38,194 bases of DNA from an uncultured Rhizobium sp. (GTDB lineage Bacteria; Pseudomonadota; Alphaproteobacteria; SHVZ01), in NCBI GenBank assembly GCA_964504845.1, contig CAZDGR010000004.1, positions 1 to 38,194 on the forward strand. Direction: 5' to 3'. Position numbers and translations under genes: made by a program. Shown in pieces: positions 1-38,194 of the stretch (positions are counted from its first letter, which is position 1; each line of letters opens with the position of its first letter). Below the pieces are notes generated by a model. That model did not search any database, was not told where the DNA came from, and saw only the letters and a program-made list of their open reading frames with translations.

Positions 1-407
1 AGAATGCGGGTGCCCTCGGCCGGCGCACCACTTTCCGCGGATCTTGGTGGCAGCTCCGATGAGAAGTTGCCGGCTCGCAGAAGCTCCTGGCTGATCTCGT
101 GGAGACGACCATGCGGTGCGGTCGGCATCGACATGCGGCACTCGATGTTCGCCGCGCCCGCCAGAGCCTGCTGCACCAAGGAGGTCGCCACGTCGCGGGC
201 ATCGCGACCGTAGTAGCGACCATTCTCGACCATGAGATCGACGATCCGCCCTTCGCCCGACGGCTCGACGATGAATGCCGGAGTTACGCCGGCAAAGGGA
301 TCCAGCGTCGCTTCCAGGGCAGGAAAGCGCTCGACGAGCGCCGTGAGCTCGGCGCCTGTGCGGTCGGCTATGCGAGCCTGAACCGCAGCGACTATTGAAT
401 CGGTCAT
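1..407 (-). CDS. Partial CDS running off the left edge; probable N-terminus of a second Maf-like (motility associated factor) glycosyltransferase
   Basis: Not in the ORF track because it has no stop in the window. Manual translation from ATG 407 stays open to the edge: MTDSIVAAVQARIADRTGAELTALVERFPALEATLDPF...RIVDLMVENGRYYGRDARDVATSLVQQAL. This resembles the N-terminal segment of the adjacent Maf (VLNVATKNVAFYTADPRILATHGV). Confidence 0.55.
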   Translation of the reverse strand, partial: MTDSIVAAVQARIADRTGAELTALVERFPALEATLDPFAGVTPAFIVEPSGEGRIVDLMVENGRYYGRDARDVATSLVQQALAGAANIECRMSMPTAPHGRLHEISQELLRAGNFSSELPPRSAESGAPAEGTRI

Positions 408-565
408 CGGCTGTGACAAGGACTGACCTACCCCGATCCGTCGAACGCCGACGGAGGGCGTCCCAGGGGCGAGGAACCTTCGCGGCTCCGGTCGAATACT
501 TCATACTTGAACGGGGCGCAACCCGTGACCCCTGCACCTGGCGCCTTGTGTCCGGCGATGCGCCT

Positions 566-2587
566 ATGGTCTTGTCCGCAGCGATGGCTCAATCCCTCAT
601 CATCGTCGATCCGGCCTCGCCGGTGCTCGCTCGCCGCTACGCCGCCAATCGCGCCATCCTTTCCGGAGTCGCCTCGAACGCTCTCGCCAGGATGGACCTT
701 GCGGAAGCGCCGCCGGGCACCCTGCTGGCCGATGCGGCCGAGCCCGATGTCGTGCTCAACGTCGCAACCAAGAACGTCGCCTTCTACACGGCGGACCCGA
801 GGATCCTCGCCACTCATGGAGTCGCCGCCTTCGTCGACGCGGATCAATGCTTCAAGCCGGGCGTTGCTGCCTATACGCCCGAGGACGAAGTGGCCTATGA
901 ACGCATCGTCGCGATAGACGCGGCATTCGGTGCCTCGCTCATGACGCAACCCAAACCCTATATCGTGCCGTCTCGCTACTCTCCTGTCCTGACCGTATTC
1001 GGGATCGGCCTCGGCTGGCACCTCGAGGCCTTGCTGGAACGATACGATGTCGAGCATCTCATCCTGTTCGAGGCCGACATCGAGGTGTTCCGCGCATCGC
1101 TCTACGCGATCGAGTGGCAGCCGATCGTGGAACGTTTCGCGACGAACGGACGAAGCCTGACCATCATCCTCGAAACCGACCCGCAGTCCGCGATCAACGG
1201 CCTGCTTGCTGCCCTGCAACGCCCGAACCCGGCGCTCATCGTCGGCAGCCGCTATTTCCGTCTCTATCAGTCTCCGCTCATGGATCTCGTTGCCGAGAAC
1301 ATCAGCCAGCGGCTGCCTCTGCTCGGCTACGGCTGGGGCTACTTCAAGGACGAACGACGTCAGATCCTGCAAACGGCGGAGAACGTCGGACGATCCCGGC
1401 GCTGGCTCCGTCGCAGGTGGCCGGCTCTCCTCAGCGCCGATGCGGTCATCGTCGGAGCCGGGCCGTCGTTGGAAAAGTCGCTACATGTCCTCAGGCGCAT
1501 TCGGGATCGTGTCGTCGTCTTTGCAGGCGGCTCCGCGATCCGTCCGTTGCTGCGTGCCGGTCTGGAGCCGGACTTCCATGTCGAGCTTGAGACGGCACCG
1601 TCGACCGCAGCGATACTCCTCGAGCTGGCGGACAAGTCCGTGTTTGACAGGGTCACGCTGCTTGCCTCCAACGGCATGATCCCACAGGCGCTGGAAGTCT
1701 TCCGCAATGCCCACCTGTTCGTTCGCGAGAACTCGGTGAGTTCCAGATTGCTCGGCGACACCGTCGAGGCCGTCCCTGGATGCTACCCTGTTGTGGGAAA
1801 TGCTGCGCTCGGCATCGCGACCACGCTCGGCTTCCGGCGGATCACGCTCTTCGGCGTCGACTTCGGCTACCGCGACCCCAAGCGCCATCACGCCTCCGGC
1901 ACCATCTACATGGACGACACCTCGCAGACGGCGCGCAAGGACCTTGCCGATCTCGGCCTGCCCGACGTCGCCTTGCTCGACTACACGGATACCCGCCACA
2001 CCTTGCCGTCGATCCTCGGCGACACGCTGCTCTCGGACGACACGTTTCATCTGAGCCATGTCGCGATGGAGATATTTCTTGCGCATGCACCGGACTTGAC
2101 CCTGATCCAGTGCGGCGAAGGGGCTCGTCTCGGCCGCGCCGTCAACCTCACTCCGGACCAGCTTGACCCGGAGATCTATGGCGGAGATCGGACTGCGACC
2201 TTGGAGGCGGTTCGGGAACGTTTCGAGTCACCGCCGATGGACAGTGCGGGTTACGGACGAAGAATGTCCCGCCTCGCCGCCGCCGTCGACGATGTCTTCT
2301 TTCAGCTCAGGCGGCTGTTCGCCCGGCCCGCCGAAGACACGGGCGAGTACGCGCACCTGGTCAGCGAGGCCCACGCCCTGCTTCAAAGCGCCGCCCGCGA
2401 TGTGCCCGCGGCCTTCGAGCTGCTCTACGGAATTTTCACCAGCTACTTCAAGGCGACGATCGAGCGGAGCTTCATGACGTCTTCCACCGAAGATCGTCAC
2501 CGATTCACTCGTGTCGCTCGCGAGCATTTCCTGCTTCTCCTCGACGACATCGCCGGGACGCTCGGGCCCCTGCGCGGCGCCCCGTAG
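566..2587 (+). CDS. maf: Maf family (DUF115 / MAF_flag10, MptE-like domain) flagellin glycosyltransferase
   Basis: Motifs VFGIGLGWHLE, LILFEAD, GWGYFKDE, VIVGAGPSL, GLEPDFHVELE, PVVGNAA, LFGVDFG and HHASGTIY are typical of Maf proteins. Start is more likely ATG 566 or 584 than the ORF-track TTG at 395, which overlaps the divergent gene. Confidence 0.85.
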   Translation: MVLSAAMAQSLIIVDPASPVLARRYAANRAILSGVASNALARMDLAEAPPGTLLADAAEPDVVLNVATKNVAFYTADPRILATHGVAAFVDADQCFKPGVAAYTPEDEVAYERIVAIDAAFGASLMTQPKPYIVPSRYSPVLTVFGIGLGWHLEALLERYDVEHLILFEADIEVFRASLYAIEWQPIVERFATNGRSLTIILETDPQSAINGLLAALQRPNPALIVGSRYFRLYQSPLMDLVAENISQRLPLLGYGWGYFKDERRQILQTAENVGRSRRWLRRRWPALLSADAVIVGAGPSLEKSLHVLRRIRDRVVVFAGGSAIRPLLRAGLEPDFHVELETAPSTAAILLELADKSVFDRVTLLASNGMIPQALEVFRNAHLFVRENSVSSRLLGDTVEAVPGCYPVVGNAALGIATTLGFRRITLFGVDFGYRDPKRHHASGTIYMDDTSQTARKDLADLGLPDVALLDYTDTRHTLPSILGDTLLSDDTFHLSHVAMEIFLAHAPDLTLIQCGEGARLGRAVNLTPDQLDPEIYGGDRTATLEAVRERFESPPMDSAGYGRRMSRLAAAVDDVFFQLRRLFARPAEDTGEYAHLVSEAHALLQSAARDVPAAFELLYGIFTSYFKATIERSFMTSSTEDRHRFTRVAREHFLLLLDDIAGTLGPLRGAP

Positions 2588-2593
2588 CGAGCC

Positions 2594-4579
2594 TTATGAC
2601 GTAGCTGCGGACCGGATCGCAAATCCCTCCGCCGGCAACCCGGCACGCGAGCGTCGCCTCATTTCGAGAGCTGCCTCTTCGATCGCTCGGGCAAGCCGAT
2701 TCATGTCGAAGAGAGGTCCGGCGGACCTTCGGATCCGCAGTCGTTCGCGAAGCGCAGCCAGAAGGTCGCGATCGCGCGCGAGCCCGATGAGAAGCTCGGC
2801 ATAAGTCGACGCGTCCGCTGCCACAAGATCCGCAAGGTCCAGATCGATAAGCATGCTGGCGCAGACCCGGCCGGCGAAATCCTTCCCGATCCACGTCGCC
2901 ATCGGACAGCCGATCGAAAGGGCGTCCGAGGCCGTGGTGTGTGCGTTGTAGGGCAAGGTATCGATTGCGAGATCGGCGACGGCGATCCGAGCCAGATGCT
3001 CTGCGTGCACCGCCGGAGGTGCGAAGATGACCCGCTCCGCGACGACGCCGGCCCGGACTGCCTCCTTCCGCAGGTTCGCTCTGGCGGCGGGTCCCGGATC
3101 AAGAAGCCATAGCACCGCGTCCGGTACTGAGCGCAGAACCTGCATCCACACGACGAAGCTGACAGTTTGAATCTTGTAGATCTGGTTGAAGCAGACCAGG
3201 ACCACCGCGTCTTGCGGCAAACCATGTCGTGCGCGGTCCGGCGCGGCAGCGGATGATGGCCCGGTGTCGTGCGGCCAGTAGCAGCCCGGAAGTCGCACCA
3301 ATGCTTCGCGATAGTCGCCCTCGCTTCCCGGCGGCGCGACGATCGAGTCCACCAGGGCATAGTCGTGATAGGCGGCACCGGTCACGCCCGGATAGCCGAA
3401 GTAATTGACCTGCGCAGGAGCAGGTCGTCGGGCGAGGATTCCGGGCCTTGCGCCATAGGTATGGCCGGAGAGGTCGATGAGTACATCTATGCGGTCGGCC
3501 GCGATGCGTGCCGCCGCGGCAGCGTCGTTCAGCGAGCCGAGGTCGACAACTTCCCCGAATACTTTCGCAAGTCGCGCGCGGACCTCGCTGCCATCATCGC
3601 CGGCCCAGCTGTATCCGTAGAGGTCAAGGTTTCCGCGGTTGTGGGCTTCGAGTAGCCCGATCATCTCATAGGCGACGGCGTGACGGCGAAAGTCGCCGCT
3701 GATATAGCCGAGGCGAAGACGCCCACTCTCCGCCGGCGCGTGCCGCGGGACGTGTCTCGCCGCATACTGGGTACTCCATCGTTCGGCGTTGGCGCGCTTG
3801 AGCCTCGCAGGGAGTTCGAGTGCCAGCAAGTGGAACGGCGGTGCTGCCCCGCCCCGCGCCAGCAAGGCGGCGAGATGGCCGGTTCGCCGCGACAGGTCGG
3901 ACCACTCAGCCACCTGCAGCCGCGCATGCAGGCCTTCGGAAAGAGCGATTGCGTTCGTCGGCTCCAGCGCCGCCGCCCGGTCGTAGGCGCGACACGCCGT
4001 CTCCCAATCCCTTGCCTCGCGCGAGCCGTGCCCTGCATTGACCCACGCGCGCACCGAGGTCGGCGCGGCTGCGATCGCACGACGGTGCCAGCGCCCGGCG
4101 GACCGCAGGCCGCGCGTCGCGAGCGCGCCGCCGAGATTCCCGAGCGCGATGCAATCGGTCGGATCGACGCTGACGGCACGACCGAAGTGGATAGCGGCGG
4201 CCTGGAAATCGCCCACATGCGCGAGCCCGTTGCCGAGTTCGATCCACGCGGTGGGCTCGCGCGGCTCGAGGGCCGCGGTCTGCCGGAACGCGATCGCGGC
4301 GCCTTCCGCCTGACCCGCCGCCAGTCGAGCGAGGCCGAGATTGACGGCGATCGGAGCCAATGGAGCGCGGCGCAGCAGCGTCGTCAGAAGGACCGCGGCC
4401 CGCTCCACGTCCCCGGCCTGAAGCTGGGCAACCGCAAGGAAGTGGCTCGCGTCGACGAGATCCGGGAGGAGAGCCAGTGCCCGCCGGTAGTCCGATGCGG
4501 CACCGACCAGATCGGCCGCCAGATGTATCTCGTGACCTCGATGAAGCAGCGCGAGGGCCTCGTCTCGCCTGGAGGTCAC
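2594..4579 (-). CDS. TPR-repeat GT41 glycosyltransferase (OGT/SEC-like)
   Basis: N-terminal TPRs, then GYISGDFRRHAV, DLSGHT, PAPAQVNYFGYPG, CFNQIYKI and DTLPYNAHTTASDAL. Confidence 0.9.
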   Translation of the reverse strand: MTSRRDEALALLHRGHEIHLAADLVGAASDYRRALALLPDLVDASHFLAVAQLQAGDVERAAVLLTTLLRRAPLAPIAVNLGLARLAAGQAEGAAIAFRQTAALEPREPTAWIELGNGLAHVGDFQAAAIHFGRAVSVDPTDCIALGNLGGALATRGLRSAGRWHRRAIAAAPTSVRAWVNAGHGSREARDWETACRAYDRAAALEPTNAIALSEGLHARLQVAEWSDLSRRTGHLAALLARGGAAPPFHLLALELPARLKRANAERWSTQYAARHVPRHAPAESGRLRLGYISGDFRRHAVAYEMIGLLEAHNRGNLDLYGYSWAGDDGSEVRARLAKVFGEVVDLGSLNDAAAAARIAADRIDVLIDLSGHTYGARPGILARRPAPAQVNYFGYPGVTGAAYHDYALVDSIVAPPGSEGDYREALVRLPGCYWPHDTGPSSAAAPDRARHGLPQDAVVLVCFNQIYKIQTVSFVVWMQVLRSVPDAVLWLLDPGPAARANLRKEAVRAGVVAERVIFAPPAVHAEHLARIAVADLAIDTLPYNAHTTASDALSIGCPMATWIGKDFAGRVCASMLIDLDLADLVAADASTYAELLIGLARDRDLLAALRERLRIRRSAGPLFDMNRLARAIEEAALEMRRRSRAGLPAEGFAIRSAATS

Positions 4580-5099: not shown

Positions 5100-5516
5100 T
5101 TATCTCAGGCCTCGCGAAACCTCGGGCCAATGACGCTCCATGTACTGGTCGATGGCCTCGACCAGGAGCTCCTCCATGGTCGCGCCACGCGCCGCCGCGA
5201 CGATCTTGATGCGGCGGACGCGATCCTCGTCGACGCGAATGCCGAGCTTTCGCGTCCACGGCCGCCCGCCGAGCCAGGGCATATTGTCGGACGGTTTGCC
5301 GTCGGCGCGAGCCGGCAGTGGCTCGGGAGGTGCCGGGGTGGGTGCCGCGCTCGACTCGCGCGGAGCTGGAGTTGGCGCAGGAGCAGGAGCAGGCACGGCG
5401 ACCACAGGCTCGGACGGCGCGTCGAGCCGCGCATAGCTCGGCGCCTGGATCGGGGCCGCCTGCCCCGGACGACGGATGATCGAAGCATCCATTTGCGGGC
5501 GAGACTTCGGACTCAT
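5100..5516 (-). CDS. Ribbon-helix-helix centromere-binding protein (ParG-like)
   Basis: Pro/Ala-rich disordered N-terminus plus C-terminal RHH-like KLGIRVDEDRVRRIKIVAAARGATMEELLVEAIDQY. Start overlaps the parA stop (ATGA). Confidence 0.75.
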   Translation of the reverse strand: MSPKSRPQMDASIIRRPGQAAPIQAPSYARLDAPSEPVVAVPAPAPAPTPAPRESSAAPTPAPPEPLPARADGKPSDNMPWLGGRPWTRKLGIRVDEDRVRRIKIVAAARGATMEELLVEAIDQYMERHWPEVSRGLR

Positions 5517-6193
5517 ACGGGCTCTCCGGACCGGAGGTTGGTGGCCGGCGCGCCGCGAACGCGGCGAAGCTGACGGTCGATATAGTCGTAGAGCTGGCGA
5601 ATCTCTTTGCTTGCCGACCCGTCGGGATCGTATTCCAAAGCTGCGAGACCCTCGATCATCGCCTCCGAGTAGATGATGCGGTCGATCAGGTCGACCGGCG
5701 CGACCTTGCCGTGCTGGGCGAGGACCCGGGCGGCGTCCCCTTTGAGCCGGGTACGGGCCTTTGCGGCGTTGACCACGAGGACCAGCGGCCTTCCTGCCGC
5801 TTCAACGATGTCGATGGTGGGTCCCACGGCCTCCAGGTCGAGTGGCGAAGGACGTGCTGGCACCACGACCAGGTCGGCGGCCGTCACGCAGGCGCGCGTG
5901 ACATCCAGAAAGGCTGGCGGCGTGTCGATGACCACCAACCGGATGCCCGACCTCTCGGCCGCGGCGATAGCGCCGGCGAGGTCGCCATCGGCACAGGCCA
6001 GCATGACCGGCCCGCTCTCCGTCTTTCGGCGGTTGTAGAGGTGGCTGAGGCTGCCCTGGGGGTCCATGTCGATCATCGCGGCCGGCCCGTGGCCCGCCGC
6101 CTCGGCAGCTGCCGCCAGGTTGAGGGTCAAGGTGGTCTTGCCGACTCCCCCCTTGGTAGCGGCGACGGCGATGACGGGAATTCGATCGCTCAT
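5513..6193 (-). CDS. parA: ParA family partition ATPase (short, type Ib)
   Basis: Deviant Walker A KGGVGKTT, DMDPQGS and VIDTPP; 226 aa with no N-terminal HTH. Confidence 0.92.
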   Translation of the reverse strand: MSDRIPVIAVAATKGGVGKTTLTLNLAAAAEAAGHGPAAMIDMDPQGSLSHLYNRRKTESGPVMLACADGDLAGAIAAAERSGIRLVVIDTPPAFLDVTRACVTAADLVVVPARPSPLDLEAVGPTIDIVEAAGRPLVLVVNAAKARTRLKGDAARVLAQHGKVAPVDLIDRIIYSEAMIEGLAALEYDPDGSASKEIRQLYDYIDRQLRRVRGAPATNLRSGEPV

Positions 6194-6451: not shown

Positions 6452-7567
6452 TCAATCCGCTCTACCGGCCGTCTTTCGCAGCTCCGCGAGGCGGTTCGTC
6501 ACCCGTCGGACGACATCGTCGCTCTCGGCCATGATCGCCCGAAGGGCGCTGACCTGGGCATCGGGGAAAGCGGCAGGAGGCTGCGCGCTCTTGGCCAAGG
6601 CATGCGCCGGGGACGGCCCAGGAGATGCTTCAGGCACGGAAACGGACCGTGGCTTCCAATGCAGCTGTTCCTGTATGCCAGCGAGATCCGCCGCCACCAG
6701 GAAGCGCCAGGAACGCCGCGAGAGCGGCGCGACCAGGATCCCGAGCTCCCGGAGCTCATCCAGCAGCTTCGAGGCCCCGCGGAGGCTGAACCCGAGGACG
6801 CGCGCGACTTGCCTGGGGGACTGAATGGGGTGGGCAATGACCAGATCGACCACGTCCGCCAAGCGGGAGTTCCGCCGACGCGGTCCGAGCTTCGCGTGCC
6901 AGCTCCGCCAGAGTCGGGTCAAACCCTCCAGGTCCCGCACGCCGGCCGACGCCGCTTTGCCGATCCCACGCAGGGACCGGGCGGCCCATGCCCCCGGCGG
7001 GTAGGTCGCAACGTTCTCCGCAGCCCCCCTCAGACCGCCCGAGAGCCAAGCGAGGGGCGAACCGAGAATTCCCCGAGCCGTCAGAAAAGCAGGCAACGCA
7101 ATCATGGCTGCGCTTGGCCCCCGCCCGGCGAGGAGCCACGACCGGAAGCCGAGGACCCCGCTCAGGAGCGCAGGGGCGCCGATGACCGCCTCGAATCCGG
7201 CCAGGGCGGCGTCCACCTCGTCGGTTTCCTCAGGACCTCCGCCAGTTACCATGCGAGGGGTCCGCGCTGTCGTCGACTGGATGCGCCGGAGCATCGCGAC
7301 CGCCCGGGCATCAGCGCCAAAGTCCTTCACGCGGCTTACCGGCAGCGCGCCCGTCACGGCAAACAGTCGTTCTATTTCATAATGATAGCCTTCCGCAGCA
7401 AGGCACTCGATGCTGGCCCGGTAGAGGCTTCGCCGGCACCAAGCCTCGCCTAGCCGGCTGGTCGCAGCAGCATGATCGAGGCGCCCGACGGCAACGGCCG
7501 CGCGCTCTAGATCCGTCCCCACGGACACGGCCACGCGTTGCCAATCGGGGGCTGACCGGTCGATCAT
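6452..7567 (-). CDS. DUF1612 / HTH_13 (RHE_PE00001-like) plasmid protein with C-terminal winged HTH
   Basis: N-terminal AAVAVGRLDHAAATSRLGEAWCRR and C-terminal RRRNSRLADVVDLVIAHP...VARVLGFSLRGASKLLDEL...SRRSWR. Divergent from a tyrosine recombinase, as is common on alphaproteobacterial plasmids. Confidence 0.7.
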   Translation of the reverse strand: MIDRSAPDWQRVAVSVGTDLERAAVAVGRLDHAAATSRLGEAWCRRSLYRASIECLAAEGYHYEIERLFAVTGALPVSRVKDFGADARAVAMLRRIQSTTARTPRMVTGGGPEETDEVDAALAGFEAVIGAPALLSGVLGFRSWLLAGRGPSAAMIALPAFLTARGILGSPLAWLSGGLRGAAENVATYPPGAWAARSLRGIGKAASAGVRDLEGLTRLWRSWHAKLGPRRRNSRLADVVDLVIAHPIQSPRQVARVLGFSLRGASKLLDELRELGILVAPLSRRSWRFLVAADLAGIQEQLHWKPRSVSVPEASPGPSPAHALAKSAQPPAAFPDAQVSALRAIMAESDDVVRRVTNRLAELRKTAGRAD

Positions 7568-7670
7568 TCTGTACCTATCGGACGGTTAGGTTCACTTTGA
7601 GACGATAGGCTGGGATCTCTCCGCCGCCAAGGGACGCGGCAGAATGAAATTCCCTCAGATCCCGGAATGC

Positions 7671-7704
7671 GATCCGTCCGATATTGGCATCTATCGGTCG
7701 GTTC
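7671..7704. other. Putative lox-like recombination site of the adjacent tyrosine recombinase
   Basis: GATCCGTCCGATA-TTGGCATC-TATCGGTCGGTTC: 13-bp imperfect inverted arms (11/13) around an asymmetric 8-bp spacer. A further arm copy TATCGGACGG lies at 7576-7585. Confidence 0.7.
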
Positions 7705-7824
7705 GAATTGGTCTCCGACGCTCTCTCGCTCTACTCTGAGTTCGTGAGCACACCGGACAGGCCCGAAACGCCCTCTAGGAGCGTCGCGACGACCCCGACG
7801 ATCGCGCCGACGGCCGGAGCGGTC

Positions 7825-8766
7825 ATGGCAGGGGAGGGCGCGCTTGCCCGACACGCTTTCACGGCCGAGTCTTTCATGGCCCAGGCTCGGGCGGCCAATA
7901 CCCGGCGAGCCTATCGCTCGTCCTTCGCCGACTATGTCGGCTGGTGCCAGCGCCTGGGCCTGGAGCCTCTGTCGGCCGACCCACAACTCATCGGCATGTA
8001 TCTGGCCGGCCTGCCTGAGCTCCAGTTCAAATATGCGACCATTCGCATGAGGCTCTCGGCGATCGCGGCCGCCCATCGGGCCGCCGGCCTTGCCCTCGAC
8101 CTCAAGGACCCGCGTATAGCCCGCGTTATGGAAGGCATCGCCCGCTCGATCGGAACCCGGGTCACGCCAGCGAAACCGGTTCTCGCCGACGAGCTCGCCC
8201 GGATGGTGCGGGCCCTGCCGGCAAGTCCGCTCGGAACGCGCAACCGGGCACTGCTGCTGATCGGCTTCGGCGCCGCGACCCGCCGCTCGGAGCTCGTCGC
8301 CCTCGACCTCGAAGATGTCACGGTCACCGACGCCGGCCTCAAGTTGCTGATCCGTTTCTCAAAGACCGATCAGACAGGGGCGGGGGAGGAGGTCGGTATT
8401 CATCGCTCCGGCGATCCTAGGCTTTGTCCGGTCGATGCGCTCGAGTCCTGGCTGCAGCTCCGCGGCCGGCAGCCCGGCGCGCTCTTTTGCCAGATGACCC
8501 GCACGGGCAACGTCCGTCCTGTCCGGCTGTCGGATCGTGGCGTCGTCCGCGCGGTCAAGGCTGCAGCGGTCGCGATCGGCCTCGCGCCCGAGGGCTACGC
8601 CGGCCACAGCCTGCGCGCCGGACTCGCTACCTCCGCTTCGAACGCCGGCGCCGATCTGCTTCACATCATGAGCCAGACCCGGCATCGTTCGGTCGAGACC
8701 GTGCGCCGATACGTCCGCGATGCAGAAATCTGGCGGAACAACGTCACCCGGCTGGTCTTGCCCTAG
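7825..8766 (+). CDS. Site-specific tyrosine recombinase (Cre/IntA-like plasmid resolvase)
   Basis: SAM-like N-domain ANTRRAYRSSFADY. Catalytic R (RRSEL), K (SKTDQ), HSLR, H (TRHRS) and Y (VRRYVR). ATG 7825 follows GGAG; GTG 7744 is an alternative start. Confidence 0.92.
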   Translation: MAGEGALARHAFTAESFMAQARAANTRRAYRSSFADYVGWCQRLGLEPLSADPQLIGMYLAGLPELQFKYATIRMRLSAIAAAHRAAGLALDLKDPRIARVMEGIARSIGTRVTPAKPVLADELARMVRALPASPLGTRNRALLLIGFGAATRRSELVALDLEDVTVTDAGLKLLIRFSKTDQTGAGEEVGIHRSGDPRLCPVDALESWLQLRGRQPGALFCQMTRTGNVRPVRLSDRGVVRAVKAAAVAIGLAPEGYAGHSLRAGLATSASNAGADLLHIMSQTRHRSVETVRRYVRDAEIWRNNVTRLVLP

Positions 8767-8894: not shown

Positions 8895-10097
8895 GTGAGC
8901 GACGCGGGACGCGTCCTGCCGCGCCTGGGCGTCCGCTGGGCCTTCACCGACTTTTCGGGCTGGGGCGTCTTCGGGACCAACCTTGCGCGCGACCTCGCTC
9001 GCCGTGGGCTCGCCGATCCGGTCCCGCTTTACCTCGACGATCTCCTGACCGACGAAACCAAGGACGATCCGCTTCTTGCCCCCGCACTCACGGCCCAGCG
9101 CGAGATGGCGCCGCGCCTGGCGGCGGAGCAGCCGGTTCATCTGGATTTCCCAGTCCTTCATGGCCTCGGAAACGGGCTCGCCGCCGGCCGGCTGAGCGAG
9201 CGCGTTTTCGGAAAGCCTGATATCGGCATGGTCTTCCTCGAGGACACGCGCCCTGGCGCCGCCGCATCGCTGGCCGCTCGCTACCACCTGCTGCTCGCCG
9301 GATCAGCCTGGAACGGCGACGTGCTGCGCGGATTCGGCATCGACCGCGTTACGGTCTGTCCGCAAGGCGTGGATACCGTCCTGTTTCGCCCGCAACCGCG
9401 CCGGGGCGTCTTCGGCAATCGCTTCACCGTCTTCAGCGGCGGTAAGCTTGAGTTTCGCAAAGGCCAGGACATCGTCATCGCGGCCTTCCGGATCTTCCAC
9501 GCCCGGCATCCCGACGCGCTGCTCCTAACCGCCTGGGCCTCTCCCTTCCCCGACGCCGCAGCAGACCTCGTGCATTCGCCGCATCGCACCGGCGCTCCGG
9601 CAGCGGCCGACAGCCCCGAAGCCGTCTCCCGCTGGCTGGCTCAAAACGGCGTCCCGCTGGACAGCATGGCGCTGCTGCCGGCGGTCTCGAACGGCTCCCT
9701 GGCACCCTGGCTCAGCGAGGTCGATGCCGCTGTCTTCGTCAGCCGGGCAGAGGGCGGCACCAATCTGGCGGCCATGGAAGCGCTTGCCTGCGGCGTGCCG
9801 ACCATCCTTTCGGCCAACACCGGGCACCGTGATCTCATCGCATCGGTTCCCTGCCTCGCCCTCGACTGCCAGGCGCTCGTCACACCAAATCCTGCCGCCG
9901 CCGGAACCGACGGTTGGGGCGAGACCGACCCTATGGCGGTGGTCGAGGCGCTCGAACGGCTCTATGCGCGCCGGGAAGAGGCGAGGGCGATCGGCCGCGA
10001 CGCGGCCACTGCGATGGCCGCAACGTGGTCCTGGCCACGGCGCATCGATGGCATTCTTGCTGCGCTTGCCGCAGTCGGCGCTTGGCCGCCCGCATGA
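8895..10097 (+). CDS. GT4 family (GT-B) glycosyltransferase
   Basis: GVDTVLFRP, FSGGKLEFRKGQD and the EX7E motif EGGTNLAAMEALACGVP. Confidence 0.85.
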   Translation: MSDAGRVLPRLGVRWAFTDFSGWGVFGTNLARDLARRGLADPVPLYLDDLLTDETKDDPLLAPALTAQREMAPRLAAEQPVHLDFPVLHGLGNGLAAGRLSERVFGKPDIGMVFLEDTRPGAAASLAARYHLLLAGSAWNGDVLRGFGIDRVTVCPQGVDTVLFRPQPRRGVFGNRFTVFSGGKLEFRKGQDIVIAAFRIFHARHPDALLLTAWASPFPDAAADLVHSPHRTGAPAAADSPEAVSRWLAQNGVPLDSMALLPAVSNGSLAPWLSEVDAAVFVSRAEGGTNLAAMEALACGVPTILSANTGHRDLIASVPCLALDCQALVTPNPAAAGTDGWGETDPMAVVEALERLYARREEARAIGRDAATAMAATWSWPRRIDGILAALAAVGAWPPA

Positions 10098-12322
10098 GCA
10101 CCGACGCCGGGACACGGCTCGACCAGCTCTATGGAGAAGCCCTCGAAAGAGCCGCCCAAGGGGAGCTTGCCGGCGCCGGCGGCTTGCTGCGGCGCGTTGC
10201 GGCCTACAGCCCCTCCCTGCCGGAACCGATCATGGCACTCGGCGCGCTGGCGCTCCGCGGCGGCAACGCAACGCCCGCGCTGCGCTTTCTGGCGCGAGCG
10301 CTCGGAGTGGATCCGCTCAATCCTCACGGTCTCTACAATCGGGCCTTGGCGTTGGAGGCCCTGGGCCGCGAGCCGGACGCGAGCGCGAACCTTCGCCGTG
10401 CGTTGGCGAGCGCGCCGGGCTTCGCCGCCGTGCAGGGCGCCCTCGGCCGCGCCGAGCTTCGTTCGAGCAACGTGGCGCCAGCAGCACTCCGGTTGCGCCG
10501 CGCCCTCGCCTCCACGCCACGGGATCCGGATCTCCACATTGACCTCGGGCACGCGCTGCGCGCGGCCGGCCAGCATATCGCGGCGATCGCCAGGTATCGC
10601 GAAGGCGCACGCCTTGCGACGGACGCGGCCGGCCCATTGATCAATCTCGGTGCCAGCCTGGTCGAGGGCGGGCACCTGGCGGAGGCGGCGACGATCTGCC
10701 GCCGGGCGCTGGCCCTGGCGCCGACATCCGCCGATGCGTTCTACAACATGGCCAAGGCCGAATCCGACGGCGACCGCAGCGGCTCGCTCGTCCGCGCCCT
10801 CGCGATCGACCCCAGCTTCGCCGCCGCGCATCTCGATCTCGGCGTATGCAGACATGCACAGGATCGCTTGCCGGATGCGCTGGCCCACTACCGGACCGCC
10901 GCGGCGCTGGATCCTGGCCTGGCCAAGGCGCCGCACAATACCGGCGCACTCCTGATGCAGCGGGGTCTCACGCTTCAGGCAGAGCCCTTGTTTCGCCGTG
11001 CGATCGTGCTCGACCCGGCCAGCCCGGCGCTGATGAGCGATCTTCTGTTCTGCCTCTGCTTCCTCGAGACGCCCGACCTGGACGCCGTCTTCGCCGAGCA
11101 TCGACGCTTCGACCGTCGCTTCGCCTGCAAAGGAACCGCCCCACCCGCCTTCAGCAATGGCCGCGATCCCGATCGGGTACTGCGTATCGGCTATGTCTCC
11201 TCGAACCTTCACCGCCACCCGGTGGGCCACGCGCTGCTCGGCCTCTTCGAGCACCGCGATCGCCGGAAGATCGAGATCACCGCCTATGCAGGCCCATCCC
11301 CGGTCGACGAAATGACTTGCCGCCTGCGGATGTCGGCCGATCGCTGGATCGACACAGACCGCATGCCGGACGAGGTTCTCGCCGCAACTGTGCGGCAGCA
11401 CGAGATCGACATTCTGGTCGATTGCATCGGACACCTGCCGCAAGGACGGCTGCTGGCCTTCGCCCGACGGGCAGCGCCGATCCAGATCGGCTTTCCGGTC
11501 TACCCCAACACCACCGGGCTGACCGAAATGGACTATCGCATCGCCGACGCTGAGGTCGCCCCACCCTCAACCGATCGTCATCACGTTGAACGCCTGATCA
11601 GGCTTCCTGACGTCTATGCCTGCTATCGTCCGGCCGCAGACGACGTCATCCCGCCGGCCCTGCCGCCGGTGGATCGGGCGGGGGTCTTCACCTTCGCTTC
11701 CTTCAACAATCCGGCGAAGCTGGGAAACGCTGTCCTCTCGGCCTGGGCGGAAATCCTCAGGCTCGTGCCGAACGCGCGCCTGATCCTGAAGTGGCGAGGA
11801 CTCGACGTGAGTTCCGCGCCCGTCGTCGAGCTGCGTCGCCTGGGGGTGGCGCCCGAGCGGATTGTCGTCGCCGGCTGGTCAGCCAATGCCTATTCTCCCT
11901 ATCTCGACGTCGACTGCTGCCTCGATCCCTTCGTCAATGGCGGGAATACCACCTACGACGCGCTTTGGATGGGTGTGCCCGTCCTCACTTTGCGCGGACG
12001 CCATCTCTTTGCCCGAGTCGGAGCAAGCCTCCTTGCCCAGGTCGGGCTCCGCGAACTGGCCGTCGACAACGTCGGTGCCTACATCGGCACCGCCATCGCC
12101 CTCGCCGGCGATCGCGACCGGCTCCGACGGATCCGCCATCACCTCAGGGAGCGCGTCGCGGCTTCCCCGCTTACCGACGGCCGGCGCTATGCCGGGCATG
12201 TCGGCTCGGCGTACCGGGCAGTCTGGCGGCGCTGGTGCGATGGCCTGGCCCCGGCAGCTCTGACGATGGATACAGATGGCGGGATTGCGTGGTCGCCGAC
12301 AAATGCGCCGGTGCGCTTTTGA
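10094..12322 (+). CDS. TPR-repeat GT41 glycosyltransferase (SPINDLY-like)
   Basis: ATG 10094 overlaps the upstream TGA. Many TPRs, then GYVSSNLHRHPVG, YPNTTGL, FASFNNPAKL and NTTYDALWMGVP. Confidence 0.9.
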   Translation: MSTDAGTRLDQLYGEALERAAQGELAGAGGLLRRVAAYSPSLPEPIMALGALALRGGNATPALRFLARALGVDPLNPHGLYNRALALEALGREPDASANLRRALASAPGFAAVQGALGRAELRSSNVAPAALRLRRALASTPRDPDLHIDLGHALRAAGQHIAAIARYREGARLATDAAGPLINLGASLVEGGHLAEAATICRRALALAPTSADAFYNMAKAESDGDRSGSLVRALAIDPSFAAAHLDLGVCRHAQDRLPDALAHYRTAAALDPGLAKAPHNTGALLMQRGLTLQAEPLFRRAIVLDPASPALMSDLLFCLCFLETPDLDAVFAEHRRFDRRFACKGTAPPAFSNGRDPDRVLRIGYVSSNLHRHPVGHALLGLFEHRDRRKIEITAYAGPSPVDEMTCRLRMSADRWIDTDRMPDEVLAATVRQHEIDILVDCIGHLPQGRLLAFARRAAPIQIGFPVYPNTTGLTEMDYRIADAEVAPPSTDRHHVERLIRLPDVYACYRPAADDVIPPALPPVDRAGVFTFASFNNPAKLGNAVLSAWAEILRLVPNARLILKWRGLDVSSAPVVELRRLGVAPERIVVAGWSANAYSPYLDVDCCLDPFVNGGNTTYDALWMGVPVLTLRGRHLFARVGASLLAQVGLRELAVDNVGAYIGTAIALAGDRDRLRRIRHHLRERVAASPLTDGRRYAGHVGSAYRAVWRRWCDGLAPAALTMDTDGGIAWSPTNAPVRF

Positions 12323-15028: not shown

Positions 15029-15568
15029 ATGCGCCTCGATCGACCTATCGTCACCTCCCGACTGACGCTACAGGTTCTCGACGAGGCGGCGGCGAGTGGA
15101 CCATATCTGGCATGGATGCGGGATCCGGACGTTCTGCGCTTCCTTGAGGCGCGTCACGGGAAGCATGACGCGCAGTCCCTGGCGGCCTTCATCCGCTCGG
15201 CCAACAACAGCGAGGACGCCCTGCTTCTCGGCATCTTCGAGCGTTCGACCGTCCGCCATATCGGGAACATCAAACTCGGGCCCATCGATCGCCCCAACCG
15301 CCGTGGCGAAATCGGGATCATGATCGGCGAGCGCATCTGCTGGGGTCACGGGTACGCCCGCGAAGCTATCGAGGCCCTAGCCGATTACGCCTTCAACGTA
15401 CTCTGTCTGCATAAGCTGACGGCGGGCTATCTGGCGCCGAACTCGGCATCGGGCAGAGCGTTCGAAGCAGTCGGCTTCATCATCGAGGCCCGTTATGCAC
15501 AGCATTTCCTGCTGGATGACACCTGGGTCGATGGCGTGCGCATTGCTCGCTTCGCCCCGGTCCGTTAA
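15029..15568 (+). CDS. GNAT (RimJ/RimL-like; PseH-like) N-acetyltransferase
   Basis: RLTLQ, HIGNIKLGPID, GEIGIMIGER..WGHGYAREAI and N.AS.RAFEAVGF. Confidence 0.85.
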   Translation: MRLDRPIVTSRLTLQVLDEAAASGPYLAWMRDPDVLRFLEARHGKHDAQSLAAFIRSANNSEDALLLGIFERSTVRHIGNIKLGPIDRPNRRGEIGIMIGERICWGHGYAREAIEALADYAFNVLCLHKLTAGYLAPNSASGRAFEAVGFIIEARYAQHFLLDDTWVDGVRIARFAPVR

Positions 15569-17454
15569 CGGCCGATCGAGGCGGTCGCTTCACGCAGGCG
15601 CGTCGCAATCGCGGTTCGAAACGCCTCGCGGCTGAAACGCCGGCGTGCCTCGCGGGTTGTTGCCTCGATCTGTCTGTGCCGCTCGCCTTCCGGCAAGCGA
15701 TGCGCCCCTTCGATCGCCGCCTCGATCTCTTCCAGGCTGCAGGTCTCCAGTATGATGCCGCAGCCCGGCGGTAAATCGATCCCGCATTGTCGGGAAAGGA
15801 TCGGAAAGAGCCCCGCCTGCATGCAGGTGATCGCCGAAGTCGACTGCCCTTCGCTTGCCGACGGCGCGACAAACCCTATGCAGGCGGCGGTCAAGCAGGC
15901 GAAGTCGAACGATACCGGCGACATCGAGCCGAGCACCCTGATCGTGCCTGACCGGCTTATGCGATCGCCGTAGGTCGTCCGAAACCACGCCTCGTCTGCA
16001 GCGGGCCCCACGACATCAAGCCGCCAGTCTGGACGCCTGAGAAAGACCTCCACAACCCGGTCGAGGCCCTTCAGTGCCGCACCGTGACCTGAAAACCAGA
16101 GCCACCGTCGCGGGTCCACGGTGGTTCGGCTTGCGTCCGGTTGCCGAAGAGGGGCGCCCGACGGCGACACCAGCCGTATCTTGTCCTGCATCGCCGCTTC
16201 ATAGGTCGCGCGAGTCACATTGTTGCCGAAGAGCCAACACTCGTCGGCCAGGCGAAGGGAGGCGATCTCGCCCGCGACGTCGCCGAGGCTGCGCACCGGC
16301 GGCGCCGTCACCCCTGTTCGCTGCTTTAGCTCTCGAAGGCGCCGAGCCTCCTGCTCATTCTGGAAGTCTGGACTACTGCCGGTGAGCAGCATGATTTTGC
16401 GGCAGTCAACGCGCAGGCGGGGCGCATGACGGCTGAGCGCGCTGTGCAGGCAGAAGACACCGTCATAGGTCTCAGGGTTCGCCCATGCATCGAACAGACC
16501 CGTCAGGTCGACGGCAAAACCATGTTCGAGAAGCATGCGGGCAATGACCCGGCTTTCCCACTGATTGCTGTGGCGGGAAAACCGTTCGTCAGTTTCAGGT
16601 AGGAGCACGCCGCCGGCGTTATAGCCGAACAGGAATACGCCCCTTTTCCGACGATCGAGCGGCGACAGACGCGTGACGTCCCCGATCTTCTCGACGCCGA
16701 TCCTGCCAATGCCAGGGACATCGAGACGTTCCGGTGGATCGTTCGTGAGGATGTGGATCGTCGCAGCGTAGGCCGCGCGGCTGCCGATGCTTGCCGGATC
16801 GGCCGCGAGATCGGCATGGAAAGAGGTGGCCGCTTCCTCGAGATGACCCGTCGCGACCAATGCAAGCCCGCGATCGAAGTCGTCGGACACCCCAATAGGC
16901 CTCTGCGCCTTCGTCCGACATAATGTGTCGATCGCTTTCAGGAGACTGCGGGCGACGTCAATCAGCTCCGGCCGACCGTGAAGCAAGGTCCGTAGGCGCC
17001 GGCTGACCGCACCAGCCTTTCCTGCCGCGATGCGCAAGGCTGCGTGCTGAAGTTCGTGCCCCAGGTTCGGCACCAGCGCACAGACACGTCCGAGGCCGAC
17101 CCCGTCGTCGTTCGTGTCTAGTTGGCGCCGCAGGTTCCAGCCTTGAACCGCCTGCGGCGACAGCGCGAGTCCGCGCCGCACGGTGCGGCCCACCTCGGCG
17201 ATCCGACCTTTGGAGAGTTGTAGCGCTGCGAGGTTGAGACAAGCGGCGCCGTCGACTTCCGCCCAAACAGCACGACGAAACATGGCGAGCGCCAGCTCGC
17301 CAAGCTCGAGGCTGACAAGCGCTATTCCCAGAAGCTGGAAACCTGCGCCATTGCCAGGCGAGACCGACAGCGCGCTGCGCGCCAAGCGGACCGCACGCCA
17401 ATGTTCCCCTGATCGGAGGGCCGCCTCTACTTCGCCTATCTTGTCACCGATCAA
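15565..17454 (-). CDS. Degenerate-TPR + GT-B (GT4-like) glycosyltransferase
   Basis: TPR-like N-half. C-half carries HSNQWES, LLTGSSP, WFSGHGAALKGLD and PSASEGQSTSAITCMQAGL. Confidence 0.75.
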   Translation of the reverse strand: MIGDKIGEVEAALRSGEHWRAVRLARSALSVSPGNGAGFQLLGIALVSLELGELALAMFRRAVWAEVDGAACLNLAALQLSKGRIAEVGRTVRRGLALSPQAVQGWNLRRQLDTNDDGVGLGRVCALVPNLGHELQHAALRIAAGKAGAVSRRLRTLLHGRPELIDVARSLLKAIDTLCRTKAQRPIGVSDDFDRGLALVATGHLEEAATSFHADLAADPASIGSRAAYAATIHILTNDPPERLDVPGIGRIGVEKIGDVTRLSPLDRRKRGVFLFGYNAGGVLLPETDERFSRHSNQWESRVIARMLLEHGFAVDLTGLFDAWANPETYDGVFCLHSALSRHAPRLRVDCRKIMLLTGSSPDFQNEQEARRLRELKQRTGVTAPPVRSLGDVAGEIASLRLADECWLFGNNVTRATYEAAMQDKIRLVSPSGAPLRQPDASRTTVDPRRWLWFSGHGAALKGLDRVVEVFLRRPDWRLDVVGPAADEAWFRTTYGDRISRSGTIRVLGSMSPVSFDFACLTAACIGFVAPSASEGQSTSAITCMQAGLFPILSRQCGIDLPPGCGIILETCSLEEIEAAIEGAHRLPEGERHRQIEATTREARRRFSREAFRTAIATRLREATASIGR

Positions 17455-17460
17455 AGGTGA

Positions 17461-18645
17461 TCACCCGCGACGATGCCAGGCTACGAGGCGATCGACCACG
17501 GCCTTGGCGCCGTTCTCCGCATCCCAAGCCCGGGCCAAGCGCCTGGCTTCTGCGGCGCGGGCCGGAAGGTCTGCGATCGCGCGACGTATCGCTGCGTCAA
17601 CAGCCTCCGGAGTCCACTCACAGAATGTCACCGGCTCCCCGCCTAGCCGCCGGACGGAAGCGCTCATCCACGTGTCCTCCGGCACGACGACAACCCGGCC
17701 GGCAGACAGCGCTTCACAAAAGACCGCCGAACTGGCGATGCGGTACGCCGAGGCGAGATAAGGCAGACAGACGATATCGGCCGCATCCAGGAGGCGGCGA
17801 TAGGCCGATGGATCCAATGATCCTTCGATGAGAGCGGTATCGCTTCCGGCCGTCGCGAACCGTCGCACTTCGGCAATCTGCCCGGTCGCGCTGAGGCTTT
17901 CTCCGGTATCGAATGTCTGTATTGCCAGCCGATAGGACCGATCGCCGGCGCGCGCGAGTTCGCACAGCCTCGGCAGCAGGTGGAAACCCTTCATGTATCG
18001 TGCGTCGCCGAAGTAGCCGACGACGGGCCTATCTGTCGGCGGTGGGCGATGCTCGGGCGAGGGCACAGTGAAGGGCAGGGGCAAGGTCGCAAAGTCGAGC
18101 CCGAGCGTCGCGCGGTGAACCTCCGCATTCTCCTCGGTCTCGCAGCAAAGCACGGCCGGGCGAGCCGTCGTCGACAGCACCAGCGCAGGAACTTTCAGCC
18201 GCGGACCCTCGCCTGCGTAGGCATCCAGATCGTAGCGAAACAGACAGACCAAGGTCGGCAGCGACGGTCCCGCGATCAGCGACAGCCATTGCGCGAGGCC
18301 GACGATCTGCCGCGACGTGGTGGCGGGTACGAAGACCAGCGTCCCGGGACCGAGCTCGGCGGTCAGCGGGACGAGATCGCGGTGGAAAACCGCGTTGAGC
18401 GCAATATGCGTCCAGGCCGCACCGACTTCGGCGTCGCCAGGAATGTCATTCAGAACTGCCCGGCCGAGCGTGGTGAAATGTCCAACGGCACCGATAGCTT
18501 CGGCGACTGCCGGCTCGATGCCGCGATAGGCGAAAATCCGCGTCTCGATGCCGCGCGCGCGGGCCTCCCTCGCGATGCCCTCGAGATAGTTGAAGTTGTG
18601 ACCGCTGAACGTCGCCAGATCGGGATCGAGAACGACGAGCTTCAC
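17461..18645 (-). CDS. GT-B (GT4-like) glycosyltransferase
   Basis: Likely start GTG 18645 (VKLVVLDPDLATFSGHNFNY), since the ORF-track start overlaps the upstream gene. Motifs YFGDARYMKGF, ADIVCLPY and YRIASSAVFCEAL. Confidence 0.8.
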   Translation of the reverse strand: MKLVVLDPDLATFSGHNFNYLEGIAREARARGIETRIFAYRGIEPAVAEAIGAVGHFTTLGRAVLNDIPGDAEVGAAWTHIALNAVFHRDLVPLTAELGPGTLVFVPATTSRQIVGLAQWLSLIAGPSLPTLVCLFRYDLDAYAGEGPRLKVPALVLSTTARPAVLCCETEENAEVHRATLGLDFATLPLPFTVPSPEHRPPPTDRPVVGYFGDARYMKGFHLLPRLCELARAGDRSYRLAIQTFDTGESLSATGQIAEVRRFATAGSDTALIEGSLDPSAYRRLLDAADIVCLPYLASAYRIASSAVFCEALSAGRVVVVPEDTWMSASVRRLGGEPVTFCEWTPEAVDAAIRRAIADLPARAAEARRLARAWDAENGAKAVVDRLVAWHRRG

Positions 18646-18728
18646 TCTGCAGCCCTTCGAGATTTCCGCATCACAATCTCCGTGCTTCCTAGGCGAGGCA
18701 AGGGATTTGGTCCCCCGGCAGAAGGTCC

Positions 18729-20675: not shown

Positions 20676-20706
20676 GACGTTCGACCGGGCATGACCGACC
20701 GTCGCT

Positions 20707-21420: not shown

Positions 21421-21464
21421 TGCTTGTCCTCTCCGCCGCTGAGGCGAGCCGCAGATAGCATCCC

Positions 21465-23486: not shown

Positions 23487-23605
23487 GTCCGTTTGCGGAG
23501 GAGGAGTTGCTCGTTGGTGCGAGACGCGCTTGGGCTCGTAGCACGCCCCCCAGGAGGCGTCGATACCGCTTGTTCCTCGCCGGCAGCGCGGCTAAGTCGT
23601 CCTTC

Positions 23606-32735: not shown

Positions 32736-32828
32736 GATCGACCCGACCTTTGCGACGCCTTCCAAGTGAGCACGACAAAACGCCGCACCGGCCAAAGCGC
32801 ACCCCGCCTGGGAGATGGTGTGAAAATC

Positions 32829-37040: not shown

Positions 37041-38018
37041 TCACGTTGTCTTCGCCAGCACCAACCGCGCCTGCCCTTGCAGATAGGACTTGGTGGCTGG
37101 TACAGCTGGCAACGACGGATGAATGGTGAGTCCCCGCGCGGAGACGTCAACCTTGGCGCCGTCATAAACCGCAAGCACGTCCGGTAGGATTGCTTTCACG
37201 CGATAGGCGAAGGCCGCGGTCGCCTGGTATGCCGCCCCGAACTGCTGTGCCAGCACCGACCACGGGATTTCGATTGACCGCGACAGCCGCGGCAGCCGAT
37301 GCGCGAGCCAGACATAGAGGTCGAGGCAGAGCGGCGAACCCTTGAGATAGGCGATCGCCCGTGGATCCAGTGGTACCGCGTGATTGCGCAGGTGCTCGTA
37401 GAATTGCGGCGTGAGAACAATGGCCTTCGGGAAGAACGTTCCTTCGTCGGCAGCCCAGAGATGCAACCCGCCCTCTACCAGTTGCTGGTCGTGAATGACC
37501 GACTCTTGGGTTTCGGTGTGATCCCACTGGAAGGTGAAGGAGCATCGAGAGATGCGCAGCGCCTGCTCTCGGATAGCCCTGATGCTGCCGCGTTCGCCGC
37601 CGGTTACCGGAATCCCGAGGCTGCGGATCCACGCCGTCATTGACTTGCCGAGGCTGATGGAGCGCGACTTGATGCCTTCGGTCATCAGGTAGACCAGGAT
37701 CAGCCGGGCCTTGGCGCCGTAAGGGACACCGACCACGCGCATCTGGCCGTCGGTGACGATAGCGCCAGGCGTGATGATCAGGTGGAACTTGCCGTTGGAC
37801 CGGATCCAGCGGGACTCGTCGTTCTCCGGGCGCATGTGAGGCAGGCCGGCAAGGCAGAAGCCCGAATGGAGGTAGGAGATGTCCTCCTCGATCGAACTCA
37901 TGATCTCGTGCGCGGCTTCCAGCCGCCGAAGCTCGCGGCGCGGTGCTGACTGGCTCTCGGCTTCCCTGAGAAGCTGCTTGAAGCCCTTGAGCAGAAGCTG
38001 GTTGTGAATCTCGGCCAT
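37041..38018 (-). CDS. repA: Plasmid replication initiator protein RepA (RepA_C-like)
   Basis: YLHSGFCLAGLPH, GVPYGAKARLIL, ISLGKSMTAWI, TGGERGSI, HAVPLD, LDLYVWLAHRL and IPWSVLAQQFG. ATG 38018 is the likely start. Confidence 0.88.
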   Translation of the reverse strand: MAEIHNQLLLKGFKQLLREAESQSAPRRELRRLEAAHEIMSSIEEDISYLHSGFCLAGLPHMRPENDESRWIRSNGKFHLIITPGAIVTDGQMRVVGVPYGAKARLILVYLMTEGIKSRSISLGKSMTAWIRSLGIPVTGGERGSIRAIREQALRISRCSFTFQWDHTETQESVIHDQQLVEGGLHLWAADEGTFFPKAIVLTPQFYEHLRNHAVPLDPRAIAYLKGSPLCLDLYVWLAHRLPRLSRSIEIPWSVLAQQFGAAYQATAAFAYRVKAILPDVLAVYDGAKVDVSARGLTIHPSLPAVPATKSYLQGQARLVLAKTT

Positions 38019-38194
38019 TTCCGGGGATGTCGGTGAATGCGGGCGCACACTATCAGCGGGCTCGGCGTGCGGCCAAGGATAGCGGCGGGCACTTCGGCCC
38101 TTATCCTCGCGATCCTTTCTATGGCGCGTTGAATCTCTGAGAGGCTGTCGGCGCCTATATCCGAATACAAGGTTCTTATAGAGGTATAGAGCTT

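Follow-up and report, generated by a model that had tools for sequence, protein, structure and literature searches.

The Cre recombinase and its site loxP resolve replicon dimers of the phage-plasmid P1 (PMC8138268), and sites of resolution commonly have a second role in regulation (PMC6312765). A Cre-like recombinase encoded beside repABC on rhizobial plasmids (CDS5 of pSmeLPU88b) has also been proposed to resolve dimers (PMC10194956), and about 500 recombinase/site pairs have been predicted by a rule of proximity plus palindrome, with activity in 8 of the 17 tested (Jelicic et al., 2023; PMC10250229); YR9, from a plasmid of Sphingomonas koreensis, recombines its site lox9 in Escherichia coli (PMC10250229). 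Here we describe a locus of this kind in a freshwater alphaproteobacterium, an uncultured Rhizobium sp. (assembly GCA_964504845.1), on a 38,194-nucleotide stretch, hereafter the window, which is the whole of contig CAZDGR010000004.1. It carries a 34-bp lox-like palindrome (the core site) upstream of the gene for a Cre-type tyrosine recombinase, with a second gene, here called the divergent gene, running away from the other side of the site. We consider it probable that core site and recombinase together form the multimer-resolution module of a plasmid that is itself probably circular and about 110–120 kb in size.

Results

The original prediction described a 13-8-13 inverted repeat with an asymmetric 8-bp spacer, and re-measurement gave the same counts: the arms are complementary at 11 of 13 positions, at 12 of 14 with the flanking pair included, and at 15 of 18 when extended. 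Geometry alone is weak evidence, since 13-8-13 repeats matching at 11 or more of 13 arm positions are not rare in this genome (418 of 4,459,770 positions, 0.094 per kb or about one per 11 kb), and it is conservation that lifts the site above chance. When the genome was scanned with 10 inner bases of each arm specified (20 positions scored), the core site was the best match, at 19/20; the runner-up reached 16/20, and no second copy in the source genome scored above that. Pairs in PMC10250229 were sought as inverted arms of 13–15 bp with at most two mismatches and an 8-bp spacer, lying no more than 1 kb from the gene, and active sites featured a GATA-type motif beside the spacer and a T at arm position 7. 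The core site has such arms, mismatch number, spacer, distance and GATA-type motif; at position 7 its left arm has T and its right arm A. Scored with a matrix built from 10 orthologous arms, those of the source genome excluded, the right arm reaches 13.7 bits against 21.4 bits for the left.

Of the 11 other family genomes, 4 encode a close relative of the recombinase (68–79% identical), and another relative, 81% identical, is encoded on a metagenome contig (L011). A cross-genome pattern that fixes 20 bases and tolerates up to three mismatches was searched in 12 family genomes, with the reversed pattern as control. It was found exactly once, beside the gene, in all five genomes that have a close recombinase (68–100% identical), and was absent from the seven that lack one; the control matched in two of the 12. 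The pattern was derived from these same orthologs, so that the informative parts of the result are the uniqueness and the absence, and the genomes are related rather than independent, with assemblies 74–98% complete. The original prediction suggested looking for the same arms beside homologs and elsewhere, and they proved to be conserved beside five of five close homologs and single-copy in each genome. Mean pairwise identity across six orthologous sites is 0.88 for the left arm, 0.81 for the right arm and 0.63 for the spacer; for the flanks of the six loci it is 0.28 over the upstream 30 bp and 0.39 over the downstream 30 bp. On this comparative evidence the palindrome is very probably the cognate target of the recombinase.

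Among ten class-level homologs at 35–40% identity, six adjoin a related palindrome with a 9-bp centre and one a palindrome with an 8-bp centre, while none is visible in three. The 9-bp-centre palindromes beside distant Cre-type homologs (L015, L017-L021, L043, L065-L068) have a geometry that an 8-bp-only search misses or misregisters. Contigs from four public sequencing runs of near-identical strains were also compared; no RNA run was listed among those containing the sequence. The spacer is altered once (X3, X5), and joints at the site are absent. Power is low, as the contigs differ at only about 7–10 of 700 positions, and contigs drop rare variants.

The recombinase reading frame is intact, as had been claimed, and the 340 residues from its putative start, within the 300–400 expected, comprise the core-binding (PF02899) and catalytic (PF00589) Pfam domains. 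There is no arm-binding domain, and residues 1–28 are unstructured in the structure model (pLDDT 83.9). The catalytic set R180, K207, H288, R291, H314 and Y323 is invariant in all 30 sequences aligned, these being the query and 29 of 120 listed homologs. Among solved structures Cre was the best phmmer match (E 8e-12), with XerD at 3.3e-6, and a Foldseek search with the predicted model likewise gave Cre or an engineered variant at listed ranks 1–32 (best E 4.3e-12, TM about 0.6), with XerA and XerD at ranks 34–35. XerC/XerD acting at dif was rejected, the protein scoring about 43 bits against equivalog cut-offs of 330–335 and the 8-bp spacer standing against an 11-6-11 site. A viral origin is unsupported: viral contigs held neither a match to the site pattern nor a related locus. 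Passages of PMC8138268 assign no subgroup to this enzyme.

The site had been placed about 120 nt from the recombinase; it does lie upstream, but that distance runs to ATG 7825, and the conserved GTG 7744 gives 39 bp. This GTG is the likely start on comparison of the loci. In all six close loci an ATG or GTG follows the site by 38–39 bp and a TAnnnT hexamer precedes the start codon by 6 nt, and four close database homologs cover 99–100% of the 340-residue form. The spacing suggests that the -35 position begins about 3 bp after the right arm and that the recombinase message is leaderless. A consensus promoter scan gave one match (7538-7567, against 0.3 expected) and was uninformative. As the right arm would end only some 3 bp before the -35 position, bound enzyme would damp its own transcription; the autoregulatory binding foreseen in the original prediction is accordingly favoured by the fixed site-to-promoter spacing, and repression by the recombinase of its own promoter seems to us rather likely.

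On the divergent side of the intergenic interval lies a further copy of the arm. Its stretch 7576-7585 was re-measured as a perfect complement of 7674-7683, as originally reported, and with the orthologous-arm matrix the 13-mer is the top one of the 8,943,102 genome positions scored, where about 4e-5 are expected in the interval; its occurrence is beyond chance. It scores 22.5 bits; the third-best arm in L009, L010, L011 and L005 scores at most 9.5 bits. No equivalent exists in these four intact orthologous loci, and in L009, L010 and L011 the aligned stretch is not an arm. It is unchanged in the contigs of the four runs, a comparison of low power given how few positions differ. The partner arm once proposed for it at 7553-7565 does not hold up: it lies 10 bp rather than 8 bp away and scores -0.2 bits, a value equalled or exceeded at 26,687 genome positions, with about one expected in the interval. 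Since the partner is at chance level, the spacing is wrong and the arrangement is not conserved, a second full site at 7553-7588 is ruled out and what remains is a lone half-site, which we read as a predicted, lineage-specific extra binding position. Another arm-like 13-mer, at 26535-26547 within coding sequence for a TPR/GT41 protein, matches the left arm at 12 of 13 positions (17.6 bits); it has no partner arm and is probably there by chance.

The plasmid context comes from replication and partition genes (Table 1). The order of the partition-cassette genes is the same in L009, L010 and L011. In genomes G007 and G011, which retain the gene order around the site, the contig with the recombinase also encodes RepA, at 96% identity. 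RepA is present in three of the five genomes searched, G003 having the initiator and the recombinase on different contigs, and was not found in the 98%-complete G006 or in G008 (82% complete). Both ends of the 109,866-bp contig of G007 map in order onto one contig of the source genome (C177), and the G007 contig is covered by seven source contigs (122,888 bp); these matches speak for a circular plasmid, probably of the size given above. The locus thus has the arrangement expected of multimer resolution, with one site per replicon, beside the recombinase, on a circular plasmid, although circularity is deduced and the genomes are incomplete. The protein domains, the conservation, RepA and ParA together back the earlier claim that a plasmid here encodes a Cre-type recombinase and carries a lox-geometry site for it. 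No tRNA gene occurs in the window, which rules out a tRNA attachment site, and no transposase was found among the 36 open reading frames scanned, including all 10 of at least 600 residues.

Several observations weigh against this interpretation. One of the two arm mismatches falls within the conserved inner 8 bp, and a left-arm change (7679 C>T) is seen in X8 and X9, contigs from two other studies. The five site-bearing assemblies are 79–91% complete, so that a second site could be missed. Six plasmid homologs at 46–50% identity, a fetched subset of the 965 plasmid records that contain a recombinase homolog, show two clear sites (L026, L027), three weak ones and one none. Genome G008 retains a good site next to a recombinase without N-terminal domain or catalytic tyrosine. 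A site can thus outlast the intact enzyme beside it, as would be seen if the recombinase had decayed recently, if the site were acted on in trans or if it served as an operator. Circularity draws on two assemblies combined, with no terminal overlap in the window or in the contig of G007, and the promoter of the recombinase comes from spacing only, the consensus scan not having called it. Finally, of 17 pairs predicted in a similar way, 9 showed no activity in E. coli (PMC10250229).

Table 1. Features of the locus and of its surroundings, in window coordinates unless a locus is named.
Feature	Position	Strand	Remarks
Lox-like core site, 13-8-13	7671-7704	none	Putative crossover site and operator
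Parts of the core site	left arm 7671-7683, spacer 7684-7691, right arm 7692-7704
Lone extra half-site	7576-7588	-	9-21 nt upstream of the divergent gene start; lineage-specific
Putative leaderless promoter of recombinase	7708..7743	+	TAnnnT hexamer 7732-7737, 6 nt before start
Cre-type tyrosine recombinase	7744..8766	+	340 aa from the putative GTG; 313 aa from ATG 7825
Divergent gene, 371 aa	6452..7567	-	Remote RHE_PE00001/Y4cF relative: helical N-terminal part and winged helix-turn-helix
ParA-type ATPase	5513-6193	-	Partition cassette; NF041546 163.5 bits, just below the cut-off of 180
Ribbon-helix-helix partner of ParA	5100-5516	-	Partition cassette spans 5100..6193
Replication initiator RepA (RepA_C)	37041..38048	-	PF04796, E 3.8e-33
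SecA, the plasmid's second	30069-32795	-	Among TPR/GT41 glycosyltransferase genes
Glycosylation gene cluster, dense	395-4579, 8895-12322, 15565-30008, 35033-37036
Truncated recombinase	L034:391-1143 (G008 contig C67)		C-terminus lost before catalytic tyrosine; site, promoter spacing and divergent gene retained

The divergent gene was called a DUF1612 gene in the original prediction. This does not hold at family cut-offs: the protein has no match to DUF1612 (PF07756), whose true members score 164–183 bits, its only Pfam hit is HTH_13, below cut-off (23.4 against 26.1 bits), and the NCBIfam model RHE_PE00001 (NF040876) gives 53 bits against a cut-off of 250. What stands is a remote, full-length homology to RHE_PE00001 of Rhizobium etli, seen with hhalign at a probability of 97.9% over 293 columns and including the C-terminal HTH_13. 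Among the Atlas neighbours of the protein HTH_13 occurs in 31–65% of members and DUF1612 in 11–20%, and a profile search returned 2,523 clusters at E ≤0.001, which carry no genomic context; across 401 genomes of the class NF040876 had two weak matches, none above cut-off. A structure model (pLDDT 46.8, from 8 sequences) was too poor for a fold search. The DUF1612 N-terminus has been described as remotely Fic-like (PMC2686095) and RHE_PE00001 as essential in R. etli (PMC9022086), where its gene (L046:176-1312, with L047) directly follows repC; a homolog of the window recombinase was looked for on that plasmid, p42e, and not found. We regard the divergent gene as a candidate helper or regulator.

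A relative of this gene, of differing subtypes, stands head-to-head with the recombinase in all six close loci. Its neighbours were also examined at 18 plasmid loci, hand-picked from lists that span the ranking: 9 of 73 found with the window protein and 9 of 975 found with RHE_PE00001, p42e included. At 12 of these the RHE_PE00001-like gene is directly head-to-head with a recombinase, which is of the tyrosine type in six (L037, L043, L065-L068) and of the serine type in six (L036, internally deleted, L038, L040, L042, L063, L064); L035 has one gene in between, and five (L039, L041, L062, L069 and p42e) have no recombinase beside it. Some of the loci are close kin (L065-L068 85–90% alike, L063 and L064 82%), all 18 lie in rep/par regions, and the sample has no random-gene control, so that the count hints at a resolution helper as a lead only, and a shared backbone may explain the linkage. 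Lox-like palindromes adjoin the RHE_PE00001-like gene at L040:2831-2865 and L038 (about 2910-2945), where the neighbour is a serine recombinase, and the one in L040 is nearly identical to that of L043, whose recombinase is of the tyrosine type. This suggests that the recombinase was replaced at L038 and L040, in L040 by a transposon end of the tniB/tniQ type.

Elsewhere in the window the glycosylation cluster includes a Maf-type flagellin glycosyltransferase, at least six proteins that combine TPR and GT41, and GT4 and GT9 enzymes. The SecA shares 80–81% identity with its counterparts on this replicon in G007 and G011 and 51–52% with the family's other SecA genes.

Discussion

From the sequence, its conservation, the single copy per assembled genome, the catalytic residues and the plasmid context, we infer binding, recombination, dimer resolution and repression. 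Arm binding, synapsis and strand exchange are the established steps of Cre recombination. By analogy with Cre-type enzymes, one monomer would bind each 13-bp arm. Recombination between sister plasmids would yield a dimer with two directly repeated sites, which a tetramer would synapse; cleavage by Tyr323 at the edges of the spacer and strand exchange would then release two monomers, to be partitioned by the neighbouring ParA/ribbon-helix-helix cassette. Recombinase bound to the site, whose right arm would abut the -35 position, would at the same time repress its own gene, and in the source lineage the extra arm would offer a third binding position, most simply one that represses the divergent gene; the extra arm is not a crossover site. 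Dimer resolution, which the original prediction had offered as one possibility, is supported by the conserved, single-copy site in its plasmid setting, and is quite probably the main role of the pair. Cointegration, offered beside it, is not borne out, as none of the five genomes (79–91% complete) yielded a second site.

Resolution might instead depend on a helper, as with TnpS/TnpT: crossover would still take place at the core site, but the divergent protein, by binding within the 176 bp between the two genes, would be required for resolution to be efficient or directional, and the extra arm would act as an accessory position. A divergent recombinase and helper with the site between them is the TnpS/TnpT layout (PMC7157771), TnpI draws its resolution selectivity from extra copies of its own binding motif (PMC2847244), the divergent relative is kept head-to-head at six of six close loci even where both genes have been reassorted, and the plasmid sample described above leans the same way, with the locus that has one intervening gene added to the head-to-head ones. 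Yet YR9 has no such neighbour and works alone on lox9 (PMC10250229), most of the plasmid homologs at 46–50% identity lack such an annotated neighbour, the R. etli gene follows repC on a plasmid where no recombinase homolog was found, five sampled loci have no adjoining recombinase while several of the rest are close kin within rep/par regions, and the extra arm is missing from all four intact orthologous loci, so that we regard dependence on a helper as unlikely. It is less probable again that the site serves mainly for replicon fusion or exchange, through cointegration or module shuffling, or that it delimits an integrated element. Recombination at simple lox-type sites is reversible, and the DNA on the divergent side varies sharply beside near-identical recombinases, as expected from exchange at or near the site: in L011 the divergent protein is 39% identical where the recombinase is 81% identical, and in G003 and G008 it is of another subtype. 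Each of the five genomes nevertheless has a single site, the next best match in the source genome being 16/20, the spacers differ among relatives, which would block exchange between them, and there was no tRNA in the window, no transposase among the 36 reading frames scanned and no joint at the site in the contigs of the four runs, which drop rare variants.

That the palindrome is an operator only, for the recombinase or for the divergent helix-turn-helix protein, and is not recombined, we hold to be very improbable. Its constant distance of 38–39 bp from the start codon in six of six loci, its retention beside the broken recombinase of G008 and the similar palindromes next to the divergent gene and a serine recombinase in L038 and L040 would all suit an operator; the exact 8-bp spacer and the arm motif, however, match sites proven to recombine, the catalytic residues are intact and strongly conserved, and a site of this kind belongs to YR9, which lacks a divergent helix-turn-helix gene. 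A chance palindrome, for which the genomic density of such repeats could be cited, is effectively refuted by conserved arms between divergent flanks at the same position in six loci and by the co-occurrence of site and gene across 12 genomes. Resolution by the recombinase at its own site is the reading we favour.

The neighbouring RHE_PE00001-like gene is nonetheless a more valuable lead than the pair itself. We raise, as a speculation that we think doubtful, that RHE_PE00001/Y4cF-like proteins are general helpers of plasmid and chromid resolution in alphaproteobacteria, binding the resolution region and steering a Cre-type or serine recombinase towards monomerisation. If true, this would assign a role to a family that is widespread on plasmids, with 975 plasmid records matching the R. 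etli protein, and a testable reason why one RHE_PE00001 member is essential on a secondary chromosome; the window locus, with its short core site and Cre-like enzyme, would then be a minimal system for the idea. No literature linking the RHE_PE00001/DUF1612/y4cF/y4cG family to resolution was found, most subscription papers being outside the search.

Compared with described systems, the locus shares with TnpS/TnpT/rst of the Tn4651 subgroup a tyrosine recombinase and a divergent gene with the site between them. It differs in having no Tn3 transposase (no tnpA) in the window and one inverted pair with a lone arm in place of two pairs, and its divergent protein is a relative of RHE_PE00001. The rhizobial repABC-linked recombinases and the serine recombinase RinQ likewise adjoin replication and partition genes and have been proposed to resolve dimers (PMC10194956), and in the rhizobial examples fetched an RHE_PE00001 gene stands head-to-head with a palindrome between; the repABC-linked enzymes are about 29–30% identical to that of the window, and their palindromes have a 9-bp centre. 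Cre/loxP resembles the pair in its two-domain simple tyrosine recombinase, the best match by PDB sequence and by fold, and in its 13-8-13 site; Cre is about 22–23% identical and has Trp315 where the window enzyme has His, and P1 differs further in that no window relative was found in viral contigs.

SCre/SloxP, from a plasmid of Shewanella sp. ANA-3 (Suzuki and Nakayama, 2011; PMC3082901), is again a plasmid-borne Cre-type enzyme with a 13-8-13 site and two arm mismatches, and the arms of SloxM1 end in the same inner 8 bp as those described here; the outer arm, the spacer and the gammaproteobacterial host differ. YR9/lox9 (NZ_CP018821.1; PMC10250229) shares the alphaproteobacterial plasmid and a 13-8-13 site upstream of the gene. 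Both arms of lox9 have the same inner 8 bp, with 7–10 of 13 arm positions matching; the two sites diverge in the outer 5 bp of each arm and in the spacer (18/34 matching over the whole site), lox9 lies further upstream of its gene, the enzymes are 30% identical over 302 residues, and neither an RHE_PE00001-like divergent gene nor a par cassette adjoins YR9. The tyrosine recombinase first identified on the plasmid of YR9 (L048) proved to be another enzyme. A second module of that plasmid (L048:11664-18353) has the window's layout, with a tyrosine recombinase, an 8-bp-spacer palindrome, a divergent gene, parB and parA; the spacer of this palindrome is that of SloxM1, and the RepA is 37% identical to the window's. 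Genes of the TniA/TniB type (Mu transposase and NTPase) adjoin Cre-type loci on two plasmids (L022:405-2204, L048:7014-11551). This arrangement may recall transposons that hunt for resolution sites.

The original prediction had called the pair possibly new and orthogonal. Orthogonality is made doubtful by the inner 8 bp shared with lox9 and SloxM1, so that use as an orthogonal tool is uncertain, and cross-reaction with those systems is plausible but not certain on the likeness of the arms; cross-reactivity between pairs follows no simple rule of site similarity (PMC10250229). The left arm has these inner 8 bp in six rows of the prediction table of Jelicic et al., none of which is the core site. 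The pair is a new example, from an alphaproteobacterial plasmid, of Cre-type recombinases with lox-like sites, a class from which genome-engineering tools have already been drawn, and it adds to the roughly 500 predicted pairs one candidate that is better supported than most because its site is conserved across the genus.

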